The position numbers were made by a program, and so were the translations under genes. Shown here one piece after another: positions 9,096-26,764 of a stretch of DNA of 38,168 bases. Origin of the DNA: a virus (taxonomy: Duplodnaviria > Caudoviricetes); the IMG/VR virus record IMGVR_UViG_3300026125_000440, positions 1 to 38,168 of that record. One strand, given 5' to 3'. The number at the start of each line of letters is the position of its first letter. The stretch's first letter is position 1. The notes under the pieces are model-generated. The model worked only from the letters and a program-made list of their open reading frames with translations, ran no database searches and was not told where the DNA came from.

Positions 9096-9126
9096 TCAAC
9101 TGGGTGCAATGCCCAGTTGATAAATA
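9096..9126 (+). promoter_or_regulatory. Hairpin followed by a late-type GATAAATA box
   Basis: tcaactggg/cccagttga 9-bp stem at 9096-9120; GATAAATA at 9119-9126. Confidence 0.6.
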
Positions 9127-9131
9127 CTTTT

Positions 9132-9677
9132 ATGAGTAAAGACACTCTCTTACTTAATGCAAATGGTCAGCCACTGACCGTTGCTCCGCTTTCAACATTA
9201 TCGTGGCAAGAAAGCATAAAACTAGTATTCTTGGATCGAATCAACGTTTTAGAGTGGCACGAAGATTGGGAAGTTCGCAGTCCGAATTTAACCATTCGAG
9301 TACCATCAGTGGCAACAACCAAAGTATATGTTAAACCTGCACGAGCGGGTGTTAACTTTTCTCGGCATAATGTGTATGCTAGAGATAACTACCAATGCCA
9401 ATATTGCAATAAGCATTTCCGTTTTCAAGATTTAACTCTTGACCACGTACTACCTAAATCATTAGGAGGCAAACTAACATGGGAAAATATAGTAACTTCA
9501 TGTAAATGGTGCAACAACAATAAAGGCGACAATGCCAATATTATACCAAAGAAGCAACCTTATCGTCCACATGTTAGTCAACTAAAGATAAGTAGCAAAC
9601 AAGTTTCAGAAATACAATATCCAGTATGGTTCAACTATCTAGACATTCCGGATGAATTACTGAAATTAAGAGCATAA
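9132..9677 (+). CDS. HNH endonuclease (McrA-like)
   Basis: RDNYQCQYC, LTLDHVLPKSLGG, WENIVTSCKWCNNNKG; ATG at 9132 preferred over TTG at 9117. Confidence 0.9.
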   Translation: MSKDTLLLNANGQPLTVAPLSTLSWQESIKLVFLDRINVLEWHEDWEVRSPNLTIRVPSVATTKVYVKPARAGVNFSRHNVYARDNYQCQYCNKHFRFQDLTLDHVLPKSLGGKLTWENIVTSCKWCNNNKGDNANIIPKKQPYRPHVSQLKISSKQVSEIQYPVWFNYLDIPDELLKLRA

Positions 9678-11080: not shown

Positions 11081-11947
11081 ATGAACGCATCTGAATCCGA
11101 ATACTTGGACTTATTACATACAGTTTTAACACAAGGCGAACTACGGGATCAGGAACGAACAGGAGTAGGTACGAAATCCCTCTTTATGGCAAACCTCAAG
11201 TTTGACCTTAGTGAGGGATTTCCATTACTAACGACTAAACGAGTTCCATTCAAATCCGTACTAAGTGAACTACTATGGTTTATCGAAGGTAGTGACGATG
11301 AACGTAGACTAGCAGAAATACACTACGGACTCCCTAGGGAAGAACTAACAGACAAAACTACTATCTGGACAGCCAACGCAGACGCACAAGGTAAGGATCT
11401 AGGTTATGAGAACACTGATTGGGTTAAACTCTTAGGACCCGTCTATGGCGTCCAGTGGCGCAACTGGGACGGGGTAGACCAACTCGCCGAACTTGTACAC
11501 AATTTAAAGAATAACCCACAGTCTCGTAGACATTTATTATCCGCATGGAATGTAGGCGAACTAAAGAATATGGCTCTGCCACCATGTCATACATTCTCGC
11601 AATTTTATGTTGACAACGATGGTAGACTACACAGTAGTTTGTATCAACGTTCTGCGGATCTATTTCTAGGAGTACCATTCAATATTGCTTCATATGCTCT
11701 ATTAACTCATATCCTAGCGCAAGTATGTGATTATGGTGTAGGTACATTTACTCACGTTATAGGCGATGCTCACATCTATAATAACCACGTTGACGCAATT
11801 AAAGAACAACTTAAAAGAGAACCAAGAAAGTATCCAAAACTTTCTATCAACTATCAAGTTAAAGACATTGATGGTTTTACTATGGATGATTTTGTTCTCG
11901 CAGATTACAACTCGTACCCAACTATTAAAGCACCAATGGCAGTATAA
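11081..11947 (+). CDS. thyA: Thymidylate synthase
   Basis: RTGVGT, FPLLTTK, ELLWF, GPVYGVQWR, SRRHLLSAWN, MALPPCH, YQRSADLFLGVPFNIASY, GDAHIY, KAPMAV. Confidence 0.97.
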   Translation: MNASESEYLDLLHTVLTQGELRDQERTGVGTKSLFMANLKFDLSEGFPLLTTKRVPFKSVLSELLWFIEGSDDERRLAEIHYGLPREELTDKTTIWTANADAQGKDLGYENTDWVKLLGPVYGVQWRNWDGVDQLAELVHNLKNNPQSRRHLLSAWNVGELKNMALPPCHTFSQFYVDNDGRLHSSLYQRSADLFLGVPFNIASYALLTHILAQVCDYGVGTFTHVIGDAHIYNNHVDAIKEQLKREPRKYPKLSINYQVKDIDGFTMDDFVLADYNSYPTIKAPMAV

Positions 11948-12510
11948 TGAAAGTAATCATTAGCGGTAACAACCATTCGGGATTAAGTGGCGCTCTAGGC
12001 GCCATTATTCCCAATATGACATTTTGTAGCAGAGAAACAGATTTTGAACTTACAAGTGCAAATGACCAAAGACGCTTTGCTAAACTAGCAACAGAATACG
12101 ATGTGGTTATTATTTGTTCTGCATTATGGAAATTTCAACAAACTGTATTACTGGACGAAGTACACAAAGCATGTACAGAAGCAAACGTTGCGCCACATAT
12201 TGTTTGTATCGGTAGTACCACAGATAGAGTCAACAATGGGCGTACATGGCGATACAATGCTGAGAAAAAAGCATTGCGTGATTACTCTAATACGTGCGCT
12301 ATCCAAGGTGTATGGACTGATAATAAACCGAAAGTAAGTTATATAAGTTTTGGCACGTTAAGTAACAACCAACATAAGCATCCTGATCGCAAATGTCTTG
12401 ACATAGGTCACGCCGCAGAGTATATCAAATGGTTAATAGACCAACCAAAACATATAAATATTAATGAAATTAGCATAGACCCGATGCAAGGAGACTCTTG
12501 GCATGAGTGA
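11947..12510 (+). CDS. Short, atypical SDR/Rossmann-fold oxidoreductase
   Basis: VIISGNNHSGLSG N-terminus, IVCIGS, YNAEK (YxxxK); TAATG-coupled to thyA. Confidence 0.7.
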   Translation: MKVIISGNNHSGLSGALGAIIPNMTFCSRETDFELTSANDQRRFAKLATEYDVVIICSALWKFQQTVLLDEVHKACTEANVAPHIVCIGSTTDRVNNGRTWRYNAEKKALRDYSNTCAIQGVWTDNKPKVSYISFGTLSNNQHKHPDRKCLDIGHAAEYIKWLIDQPKHININEISIDPMQGDSWHE

Positions 12511-12590
12511 TAAATACATTTAGCGAGGGGTTACAGGACGGCAATCCTAGAAACCCCTCTAACATAAGCAAACTGTTAAGGAGAATGCAA
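12509..12590 (+). promoter_or_regulatory. Late-type box plus structured leader of the GIY-YIG gene
   Basis: GATAAATA 12509-12516; gaggggtt (12525-12532) pairs with aacccctc (12552-12559), inner agga/tcct stem; AAGGAG 12578-12583. Confidence 0.7.
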
Positions 12591-13163
12591 ATGTCTAAAT
12601 GTATTTATATTGTATATAAAACCATAAATCTTGTCAATAGCAAATTTTACATAGGAAAACACAAACAAGAATCACATGATTTCGATGGTTACTTGGGTAG
12701 CGGAAATTTAATCAACGAAGCGATAGAAAAATACGGAAGGGAAAACTTCATAAGAGAAACATTATCTGTACACGAAGACGAATATGAATGTTATCTCGCC
12801 GAAGAAAAAGCAATAGGCGATTTATGGAAATATCGTAATGATTGTTATAACTTAGCACCTGGCGGAGACTGCGGAATGGGTGAAACAAAGCAACTATGGT
12901 GGGATGAAAATTTTAAAAAGAAAGAGGAGTTGAGTATTGCTTGGAAAGAAAATAACCCGTCAAAAACACCCGAGGGTAGACGCAGAATAAAAGAATCCAA
13001 TAAAAGAAGAATTTGGACTGAAGAAGCAAAAGAGAAATGTGGAGGCCCACATAGAGGTAAACCAAAAACTAAAAAGGTATGTCCATATTGCGACAGGCCA
13101 ATAGCCATAAATATGTACGAAAGATATCACAACAAAAATTGTAAGGAGTATTATGGAAAATAA
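12591..13163 (+). mobile_element. Free-standing Seg-like GIY-YIG homing endonuclease gene
   Basis: IYIVYKTINLVNSKFYIGKH, YLGSG, KYGRENF, YNLAPGG; basic C-terminus with CPYC..H..C; ATG 12591 has an RBS. Confidence 0.88.
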
Positions 13164-14574
13164 AAAAAGAGAATGGTCATCATATGACTTTACTAAAATC
13201 CCGTATGATGATTTGGTGCGTGTAGGCCAACGAACGATGTTATATAGAGATATGTTCACGGTCAGTTGGCTTCTTGCCAGATTCTGTAACTACAAATGTT
13301 CGTAAATACATTGCGACCTCATATAGCAATATATGTTGAATAACTCCTTTAATTGCTGGGAACTCCCTCAGGGACAATCAGCAGCCAAGCCCGAAAGGGA
13401 AGGTTCAACGACTAGGCGAAAGCCGTACACTCAAGCGAGTGGAAATGGGGAGCATCCTACTGGGATGAAGATATAGTCTGAACTACATGGCAACATGTAG
13501 CAGTTCATAAGAGAACGGATCAAGGAGTAGCGCACTTGATTGAACATATTTGATTGTTGGCCATATGCCCGCAGTGACCGTAAGGACCATAGACCCACAG
13601 AACTATGTTTGAGGACAATAGATGAAATTAAAAAACAAGCGCGTGCCCGCGGATTTAATAGTTTCCATTTCAGTCTTAGTGGTGGTGAGCCTACTTTTCA
13701 TCCTGGATATTTGGATATCATGGAGCACTTGGCTCTTGATGTAGACAATACAAATTATACGTCGGTACACATGACAACTAATATGTCCCGCAATATGAAA
13801 TGGCATGAAACATACGTGAAACATGCTTCTAAATTTCATAGGGCAAGTATTACGGCGAGTTTACATACTGAACATGTAAACACTCGTGAAAAGATGCAGG
13901 ATTTTGCTGACAAACTTATATTTTGTCAAGAACATGATGTACAAGTAACAATCAATCAGGTTATGGTACCCGAATGGTTTGAACGTGATTGGGATAATGC
14001 TATGTTCTTCCATGAACAAGGCATAAACGTCACTCTTAAGCCACAGAGCGACCCTACAGCGAGTTTTGTTGTAGACGGGTATACACCCGAAATGTTAGAA
14101 AGACTTCACAATGGTATGCCTCAGTTAGCATACACTGAAGAAAAAGCAAACAAGGCAAAGTTAGTTACTCGTCCCGAACCTACATTCACTAAAACAAGTG
14201 ATCCTATATGGTGGGATGAATTTGCCGACATACCAAAATCGTATCAAGTAGAGTTCCGCGATAGTGAAGGTAAGTATTGGTGGATGGATCAAGCGGAACG
14301 TTTTAATGCATTCAACTTTAACAAGTTTAATGGATGGGAGTGTAGCAGTGGATACAGAAGTATTATTATTCGCGAGCCTGATGGTTCTGTTAAGCGTAGT
14401 TATTCTTGTGAGGACCAGCCTCTGGGTAACATTGAAACAGGCTTTCAACTATTCGATGAGCCAAAAGTATGTATCAGCAAAAATTGCGTTAGTAGCGCAG
14501 ACAGTAAGATACCGAAACGAGCGCCGGGAACAAAATTGCCACTCTGGCCCGGTGACGAAACCTTTAAAAGATAA
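13153..14574 (+). CDS. Intron-split radical SAM protein: join(13153..13303,13553..14574), 390 aa
   Basis: Exon 1 MENKKREWSSYDF...RFCNYKCS(T) with AAGGAG RBS; joining T13303 to AT13553-13554 gives CNYKCSYCWP; exon 2 has SGGEP, TTN and C-terminal Cys-rich C..C..C..C. Confidence 0.92.
13304..13552 (+). ncRNA. Group I self-splicing intron (IA2-like), 249 nt, no ORF
   Basis: 5' exon ends in U paired to G in P1 (UCGU|AA...UUGCGA); P AATTGCTGGGAA 13351-13362; Q AATCAGCAG 13376-13384; R GTTCAACGACTA 13403-13414; S AAGATATAGTCT 13468-13479; P7.1/P7.2, P8, P9 hairpins; terminal G13552. Confidence 0.95.
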
Positions 14575-25807: not shown

Positions 25808-26764
25808 TTATCGTGGAACCCACTTGGTATTCCGCCACTCAGTAGTACAAATACAATCTCCTACGGAGCATACTACTGTTGGTTGTATCTCTGGCAATTC
25901 ATCTTCGTAAAAGTTAAACGTTGTGGTGCTGTCTTCTGTAAATGAGTTACGACAATTCATAAATGCCATACCGCGGTTATCTATCTGTAAATGCTCTATA
26001 GCAGAATTACAACGATAACCCGTAAAATTGCCCTTCATTAAGGCTCTGGCGTTTTCATCAAAATTTACATCACTTTCTGCCTCAGTAGAAAATGTAGTTT
26101 CATAACTACCAGCAATGATAGGGTCTAAATGTATATCACTAATATACTTAGGTAATGCACTGTAATCAAATGAATTGTTTTCCCAATTAAAATGGTCTAC
26201 TTGTATATTTTGATGTTGCGACCTTAACTCTCGTTCAACAAAACTATTCAATACTTCTATACTTTCATTAACATATTTAGGGTCTATTGCGACATTAAAT
26301 TGGTAAGGAATCTTATTCTCTTTGAGATATTCGCCCAACGTATACAAATGTTCTAAGTTTGCGAACTTGTAATGGACGCTAATATACAGCATAGAAAAGT
26401 ATCGTGCGTTCTCTTCCCACCAACGCATTGTACGACTGCCATTAGTAACCATTACATTGTGTCCGCCCAAAGAATCTATAAATCTAATGTATTCATGTAA
26501 GTGTTGGAACATACTAGGTTCACCGCCACTGTAACTTACTTTTATTGTCTTTACATTGGGTTTATGTTTTTGTACAAACTCTAAGTACTTGACTACATTA
26601 TTTTTAAATGTATCGTTGATAGGCGGTACATATCGTGTCCCAGCATTTGCTCCGGGCCAGCAATACCAGCACTTGTAATTACAATAATCAGATACCATAA
26701 TATCTAATGATGCCGTTTCAGTGTGGTTAGTTATAGAAGTTATTTTATGGTTGTTATATAACAT
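25808..26764 (-). CDS. Radical SAM protein, paralog of the intron-split gene
   Basis: CNYKCWYCWP, SGGEP, TNGSR, ISVH, C-terminal C..C..C..CIC; start 26764 TAATG-coupled to the upstream gene. Confidence 0.88.
   Translation of the reverse strand: MLYNNHKITSITNHTETASLDIMVSDYCNYKCWYCWPGANAGTRYVPPINDTFKNNVVKYLEFVQKHKPNVKTIKVSYSGGEPSMFQHLHEYIRFIDSLGGHNVMVTNGSRTMRWWEENARYFSMLYISVHYKFANLEHLYTLGEYLKENKIPYQFNVAIDPKYVNESIEVLNSFVERELRSQHQNIQVDHFNWENNSFDYSALPKYISDIHLDPIIAGSYETTFSTEAESDVNFDENARALMKGNFTGYRCNSAIEHLQIDNRGMAFMNCRNSFTEDSTTTFNFYEDELPEIQPTVVCSVGDCICTTEWRNTKWVPR

Follow-up and report, generated by a model that had tools for sequence, protein, structure and literature searches.

A T4 nrdB-like group I intron of 249 nt almost certainly interrupts the Fe-S-binding CxxxCxxC motif of a radical SAM gene at 13304-13552 of the window (the whole 38,168-nt stretch of viral DNA analysed here, to which coordinates refer unless another locus is named; features lie on the plus strand unless stated otherwise). 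Directly upstream, at 12591-13163, lies a free-standing GIY-YIG homing endonuclease gene, which overlaps the first exon by 11 nt and which the preliminary description of this DNA had missed. From sequence comparisons, we propose that the ORF-less intron and the endonuclease gene form a collaborative-homing pair with the intron acting as shield, a reading to which we give a probability of about 0.65. The intron likely owes its presence here to the neighbouring endonuclease.

The window is a 38-kb virus record with a completeness rating of 10%. It encodes thymidylate synthase and an AAA/VWA pair, and its radical SAM, QueC-like, oxygenase, desaturase and nitroreductase genes form a dense island. 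A T4-type major capsid gene accompanies the same radical SAM gene in 4/4 larger records, among them a complete one of 382 kb, and from this we infer that the source phage is a large T4-like phage. The island (13153-38111) comprises 12 radical SAM genes, two with B12-binding-like and two with N-terminal SPASM-like domains, together with two QueC-like genes, a desaturase, two hydroxylase-like oxygenases and a nitroreductase. Elsewhere in the window are a gene for an SbmA/BacA-family peptide transporter (941-1963, E 4e-76), here in a phage, and a free-standing HNH endonuclease gene (9120-9677) with the motif GATAAATAC just 6 nt ahead of its likely ATG. The upstream neighbour of the endonuclease and radical SAM genes is an SDR-like gene (11947-12510; a weak match to NF038213, E 1.5e-4, far under cut-off). 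At five intronless loci (L316, L336, L337, L375 and L379) the SDR-like gene lies ∼20 nt from, or overlaps, the radical SAM start.

The intron was recognized by the covariance-model search for which the preliminary description had called: Rfam RF00028 scored 100.9 bits against 13294-13500 (cut-off 50, E 3e-25) and was the sole family match in the window. To place its boundaries, 266 in-frame splice combinations were scanned, 17 of which obey the U/G rule for the 5′ and 3′ sites, respectively. Only one of these 17, 13303/13552, restores CxxxCxxC, giving a 390-aa frame that reads CNYKCSYCWP, exactly as had been proposed. The intron itself contains no ORF of ≥60 aa. Exon 1 (13153-13303; 151 nt, i.e. 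50 codons and 1 nt) is preceded by AAGGAG at 13143-13148, carries the first two motif cysteines and ends in C-N-Y-K-C-S-T/AA, in agreement with the 151-nt exon described previously. Exon 2 (13553-14574) supplies the third motif cysteine, GGEP, the radical SAM barrel (PF04055, E 3e-6) and a four-cysteine C-terminal cluster (∼14341-14487). The intron is predicted to self-splice and thereby restore the 390-aa enzyme, with TGTTCGT/ATTGTTGG as the predicted ligated-exon junction.

All group I hallmarks listed in the earlier account were found. P1 is formed by 13300-13304 and 13312-13316, with a U13303.G13313 pair at the 5′ splice site, and the intron ends in G13552; the U.G pair and the terminal G are likewise present in the introns of two other lineages, L036 and L047. 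P3 (13344-13349/13447-13452), P4 (13354-13359/13378-13383), P7 (GACUA, 13410-13414; UAGUC, 13474-13478) and P9 (13483-13500, with a GCAA loop) are accompanied in the window intron by P2, P5, P6/6a, P7.1, P7.2, P8 and P9.0-P9.2. In a comparison of three full introns, all P1-P9 pairs form in the window intron, two pairs are broken in that of L036, and compensatory changes occur in P2, P3, P5, P6a, P7.1, P7.2, P8 and P9; P9.1 and P9.2 align poorly across lineages. P9.0, which adjoins the terminal G, is AA/UU in one intron and AU/AU in another, and this compensated change supports the 3′ splice site. P10 forms 4/6 pairs in the window, where two U.U mismatches occur, and 5/6 in L036 and L047. The mismatches would favour an intron that does not splice and a gene that is dead in this phage; we regard this as the least probable of the readings considered, for every core helix is intact and covarying, and the two exons have open frames with 66-86% identity to intact orthologs.

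P7.1 and P7.2 lie between P7 and P3, the arrangement that defines subgroup IA2, and the intron is close to the T4 nrdB and Twort introns. By helix layout and relatedness, the intron is thus assigned as IA2-type, the score itself coming from the general Rfam model alone. The highest scores among annotated relatives belong to a Clostridioides phage intron, to the introns of Twort orf142 and to the T4 nrdB intron. The last of these, whose record bears the note group 1A and which we take to belong to subgroup IA2, is 79.7% identical over 79% of the window intron, with the same P7.1/P7.2 layout and the same P9-P9.1 tail, and it too sits in a conserved codon stretch; one compensated pair differs in P1 (GCGU/UGCGC in T4, UCGU/UGCGA here). 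The T4 nrdB intron is however 598 nt long, whereas the window intron has 249 nt and is without an endonuclease ORF in L6a, and its host is a ribonucleotide reductase gene rather than a radical SAM gene. An unannotated group I-like stretch that is 81% identical to the window intron was also seen in Clostridioides phage AR1086-1 (OR397124.1; L523:1500-1800), between two 'hypothetical protein' calls that are probably one split gene.

A search with exon 2 gave 4,891 matches, 120 of which were listed, one of them being the window's own truncated product. Among these listed matches, CNY[RKN]CSYCWP is contiguous in 119/119 non-self homologs, PF04055 is found on all 120, and exon 1 is 66-86% identical (mean 76%) to the N-termini of the 119 intronless proteins; thus the alignment with intronless homologs bore out the proposed exon junction. 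GGEP and the four-cysteine C-terminal pattern are present in 131/131 alleles. The earlier view of a conserved gene under selection is supported. The C-terminal pattern is likely a second, twitch-like Fe-S site. The spliced protein has the attributes of a radical SAM enzyme, namely CxxxCxxC, GGEP and a partial barrel, and a structure model of an intronless ortholog (pLDDT 76.7) had radical SAM folds as its best matches. Viperin, MoaA and QueE were considered as identities of the host and rejected: NCBIfam models of viperin, MoaA, QueE, NrdG and N_Twi_rSAM (NF033640) reached at best 38-47 bits against cut-offs of 170-180, none of the other listed models attained its cut-off either, and the ortholog model matched viperins weakly (TM-scores 0.32-0.45), with uncharacterised phage radical SAM proteins matching better. 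A profile search gave no solved structure, and a tblastn with an intronless ortholog, aimed at cultured hosts, had no match in 50,697 phage records. With low confidence, the enzyme likely performs one tailoring step of the radical SAM island, on a nucleotide or sugar substrate.

The preliminary description had also used the intronless paralog at 25808-26764 for comparison. The paralog does lack an intron, but it lies on the minus strand and is only 26% identical to an intronless ortholog over 134 aa, too distant to serve as the main control. The truncated ORF from the TTG at 13540, in contrast, proved to be the genuine gene call it had been described as, retaining the third motif cysteine alone, and its 344-aa product is present in protein collections. 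An AAGGAG in P9.2 (13522-13542) stands 12 nt ahead of this TTG; it is not conserved in L036 or L047, in which the 3′ end of the intron is also open in frame.

Junction patterns located the same intron site in three more lineages, namely in L036, in the L035/L047 group with its several near-copies, and in L053, where the contig begins within the intron; a further hit, L051, is the window's own sequence. The successive scans returned 14 loci (8 by chance), 7 loci (3 by chance) and 66 loci, 6 of them real and all already in the set. Altogether 170 loci hold the radical SAM gene, 152 of them intronless. Among 131 distinct exon-2 proteins 127 are intronless and 4 intron-bearing, a ratio that is not a frequency because sampling was unequal: patterns served to find the intron alleles, and the intronless ones were taken in order of rank (the best 80 of 499 and the best 80 of 288). 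Intronless orthologs at 55-66% identity also occur in Bdellovibrionota assemblies.

On the host tree of 131 alleles, the four intron-bearing alleles require three changes, and a single clade of intron-bearing alleles was rejected (p-AU 3.1e-6, in a 36-row subset). The introns of L035 and L053 are 98.8% identical over their last 165 nt, the part they share, in hosts whose exon-2 bodies are 72% identical. The L053 host is sister to that of L036 (80%), the intron of which is 75% identical. Moreover, the window and L036 agree in all of the first 22 nt of exon 2, as L035 and L053 do with each other, so that this stretch tracks intron pairs and not the host tree; a 22-nt run shared with the intron alleles was seen in 0/127 intronless alleles, against a background of 25/3,216 intronless pairs. 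These 22 nt are likely a co-conversion tract that the window shares with L036. Tracts shared on the exon 1 side measure just 7-13 nt, a point against the proposed pair. As P1 pairing requires, TCG is the Ser codon ahead of the site in 3/3 intron alleles, compared with 6/127 intronless ones. Near-identical introns in hosts of 72% identity, together with the 22-nt exon tracts, form the pattern expected of homing with short co-conversion. The intron has thus likely moved sideways between phage lineages, and homing as the means of spread is, on these alignments, highly probable.

The same evidence bears on two other readings of the distribution. The intron could be old and vertically inherited, with many losses and with the endonuclease as a chance neighbour; that full-length radical SAM introns of different lineages are 72-78% identical does indicate an old association with the site. 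Vertical descent is nevertheless very improbable, as the near-identical introns in divergent hosts and the exon tracts that follow the intron largely refute it, and many precise losses would be needed on the host tree. The other reading, put forward in the preliminary description, is that splicing gates the enzyme as a domesticated control step. The observation behind it stands: an unspliced mRNA runs into TAA after 50 codons, and the frame that starts from the TTG further downstream is without two motif cysteines. One domesticated, riboswitch-controlled group I intron is known (PMC3984707). The regulatory claim is not supported, for such a stop is common to many phage introns, 127/131 alleles do without the intron, and its distribution is sporadic and horizontal, scattered on the host tree. 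The window intron consists of the standard helices alone, with no room for a sensor domain, and Rfam found no riboswitch in the window. A control function is hence very unlikely.

The endonuclease gene encodes 190 aa and matches phrog_314 (E 1e-33). It is of Seg type, and missed both curated cut-offs (TIGR01453, 37.3 of 56.05 bits; PF19835, 22.8 of 25 bits). GIY-YIG enzymes have an N-terminal Y-x-YIG motif with a conserved Glu and Asn (PMC2988022), and here Y20-I21-G22, E71 and N87 are invariant in six homologs. Against its counterpart in L036, dN is 0.245 and dS 2.05 (dN/dS ∼0.12), and the gene is by these measures intact and under purifying selection. Relatives in cultured phages are ∼32-39% identical among the matches listed. 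Close relatives among the 120 matches listed number two, at ∼67% (L036) and 58% (P0123), and the L036 enzyme (66-67%), the sole one of known context, directly precedes the same intron-bearing gene. Only L158 (= L036) and L166, of 195 GIY-YIG loci, adjoin the radical SAM gene.

This endonuclease accompanies the intron in 2/3 intron lineages with known upstream DNA and was found at 0/152 intronless loci, one of which (L166) carries a different GIY-YIG gene. The association gives a Fisher p of 0.001, which counts related alleles as independent and is not to be taken at face value; the link comes from two lineages that are not independent tests. In the L035 lineage, the intron, which seems to have been exchanged not long ago, occurs with no close relative of the endonuclease: none was found alongside or in the rest of a contig of 251 kb (71% complete). 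The pair is therefore not obligate.

Dead copies of the gene start suggest where the endonuclease cuts. In L036, a 41-codon copy of the start of the radical SAM gene, now dead, stands ahead of the cassette. It breaks off 25 nt upstream of the intron site and has 38 encoded residues in common with the live exon 1, with synonymous change saturated. This fragment would be the recipient's own gene start, left behind at the cut. (About 12 tandem ORFs of 60-80 aa, most of which start with an H-P-S/T-H motif followed by cysteine pairs, also lie between the SDR gene and the fragment at L036:539-2849.) In the window, the bases at 12503-12511 encode M-S-D and overlap the SDR stop; they show the same first nine bases and the same SDR overlap as the intact start in L336, and are likely the remnant of the displaced gene start. 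Transferred to the window, the L036 break, at the equivalent codon, predicts a cleavage zone at 13276-13280, 23-27 nt upstream of the intron site, and we infer that the endonuclease cleaves at the equivalent of these positions. The break codon is Ala in the window, while among 127 intronless alleles it is Gly in 125, Ser in 2 and Ala in none; the replacement exon of L036 keeps Gly. The break matches I-TevI, whose cuts fall 23 and 25 nt upstream of the respective intron site (PMC2988022), but I-TevI is intron-encoded whereas the present enzyme is free-standing. As the latter is Seg-type and below the curated cut-offs, the I-TevI spacing need not apply.

At L166:3888-4779, the different GIY-YIG gene is longer and has its own TATAAATA. 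It occupies the same SDR/radical SAM junction and follows a dead duplicate of the gene start, 24 codons long; the live gene there is intronless. The junction therefore attracts endonucleases regardless of the intron. This leads to the main competing account, in which the intron is a passenger of trans homing: the endonuclease would cut the 5′ part of the gene or the SDR junction, the intron would be co-converted by closeness with no shielding role, and the replacement exon 1 would keep the enzyme off its own genome. L166, with a GIY-YIG gene and a duplicated gene start but no intron, would fit such a course, as would the L035 lineage with the intron alone; the Gly-to-Ala change, unique to exon 1 of the window, could by itself give immunity, and a T4 mobE/nrdB-intron pathway is described in PMC2790892. 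Yet the L036 break is only 25 nt from the intron site, near enough for a binding site to span it, the replacement exon of L036 and the dead fragment agree in all 38 residues, the Gly among them, and this endonuclease is missing from all the intronless loci. We thus consider the passenger account clearly the weaker one, although a serious competitor, and prefer the collaborative pair in which the intron protects the donor.

The endonuclease gene has a structured leader (12509-12608), a stem plus hairpin with a fold z of −5.3 and 0/200 shuffles as stable. The promoter-like ATAAATA at 12510-12516 pairs, as 5′ arm, with endonuclease codons 2-6 in a stem of 14 bp, and the second hairpin lies at 12525-12559. 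The cassette starts with GATAAATAC in both genomes (window and L036), and the L036 leader has the same architecture with changed pairs (z −2.2). ATAAATA is found ≤90 nt upstream of a gene start in 14/21 occurrences, where ∼1 is expected. The stem is predicted to block translation of the endonuclease on read-through transcripts. The leaders of T4 endonucleases likewise combine a promoter-like element with a stem, and I-TevI and the Seg enzymes share with the window enzyme the GIY-YIG fold and a promoter placement such that late transcripts lose the inhibitory stem (PMC2988022). No Rfam family was found for the leader, nothing scoring below E 0.24. The leader's first 10 nt equal the intron 5′ junction in the window (1/2000 random windows), but only 4 nt are shared in L036, and an origin of the leader as intron remnant or operator was rejected. 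A second ATAAATA, in the 3′ end of the endonuclease gene 40 nt before exon 1 (13107-13113), is not conserved in L036; with some uncertainty, it is a possible promoter for the radical SAM gene.

In our model of collaborative homing, the intron would be removed by GTP-initiated, two-step self-splicing, as in group I chemistry, which would join the exons as TCG-T/AT to give C-S-Y-C. The endonuclease would be expressed late, once the leader stem cannot form. In a mixed infection, to judge from the alleles compared, it would cut intronless alleles ∼25 nt upstream of the intron site, and repair from the donor would copy the intron and ∼22 nt of exon 2. Sometimes repair would also copy the endonuclease gene and replacement exon 1, leaving the start of the recipient gene as a dead fragment. 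The donor would be spared self-cleavage by the intron and, in the window allele, by the predicted effect of the Gly-to-Ala change at the cut zone.

Similar partnerships are described in PMC6083498, PMC10448857 and PMC3984707, namely the cyanophage S-PM2 psbA intron with F-CphI, a T3/T7-like DNA polymerase case, and the ICP1 terminase intron with an adjacent T5orf172 gene. They are alike in that a conserved gene's ORF-less group I intron has a free-standing endonuclease immediately beside it. Compared with the cases as presented there, the endonuclease here is of the GIY-YIG family, lies upstream and appears to supply the replacement for the 5′ exon, the displaced gene start persists in a relative, and cleavage is predicted from the alleles. 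In fungal mitochondria, a free-standing GIY-YIG gene with a partial atp9 duplication is likewise flanked by a duplicated part of its host gene, but this is an organelle with another host gene, and no partner intron is described (PMC7487136). Insertion at critical codons is the usual way in which such elements avoid loss (PMC2988022).

Sister introns occur in a second gene. An Rfam search of a 251-kb relative gave a second intron, which lies in DNA polymerase motif B and shares both its guide sequence and its TCG-T exon end with the radical SAM intron. At L402:1510-1761 a group I intron without an ORF interrupts polB motif B, at N-S/L-Y-G, and this genome (G001) carries both introns. The polB introns of related phages are alike in guide and exon end and without an ORF, and differ in the host site. 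A scan with a P1-requiring pattern returned at least 119 loci (∼190 estimated), 14 of which passed the core filter and 13 of which had P7. Among the matches listed, these 13 comprise 3 radical SAM and 10 polB introns, i.e. only two host sites; the TCG-T exon end was built into the pattern, and the informative part is the host sites and identities. The polB introns are 67-76% identical to those of the radical SAM gene, which makes them as close to the latter as the radical SAM introns are among themselves (72-78%). In the intron tree, a single clade of radical SAM introns was rejected (p-AU 0.005), in a tree with weak support, 261 columns and a misplaced Clostridioides intron boundary. The tree allows two invasions or recombination between introns and gives no direction of transfer.

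A tentative origin, which we hold to be possible but on balance doubtful, is that the ORF-less intron jumped between polB motif B and the radical SAM Fe-S motif, both of which end in the TCG-T read by its guide, through reverse splicing or guide-directed ectopic insertion. It would then have been adopted by a pre-adapted free-standing GIY-YIG enzyme, with the cut site fossilised 25 nt upstream, and would represent a living intermediate toward a composite mobile intron, the donor and target sites being together in one genome (G001). For the reverse-splicing route, PMC3984707 reports no direct experimental evidence.

Group I introns with homing partners are known; new, as far as the searchable papers go, is the radical SAM host gene, and the traces of movement are unusually clear. 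That a radical SAM host is unfamiliar, as the preliminary description had remarked, agrees with the searchable papers, in which we found no report of a radical SAM gene hosting a group I intron; large collections (PMC11835236, 42,459 introns; PMC12880540, 2,513 phage introns) may hold one. Radical SAM tailoring genes would thus join the list of group I intron hosts. The 344-aa product of the gene caller, without two catalytic cysteines, would be misread as a dead enzyme. As a natural case of collaborative homing, the locus can be tested at a predicted cut position, and the sister introns, whose two sites are unrelated but share a guide target, bear on how group I introns reach new sites. Finally, a gene of the radical SAM island of large T4-like phages appears conserved enough to sustain homing, which is an indirect sign of its importance to the phage.
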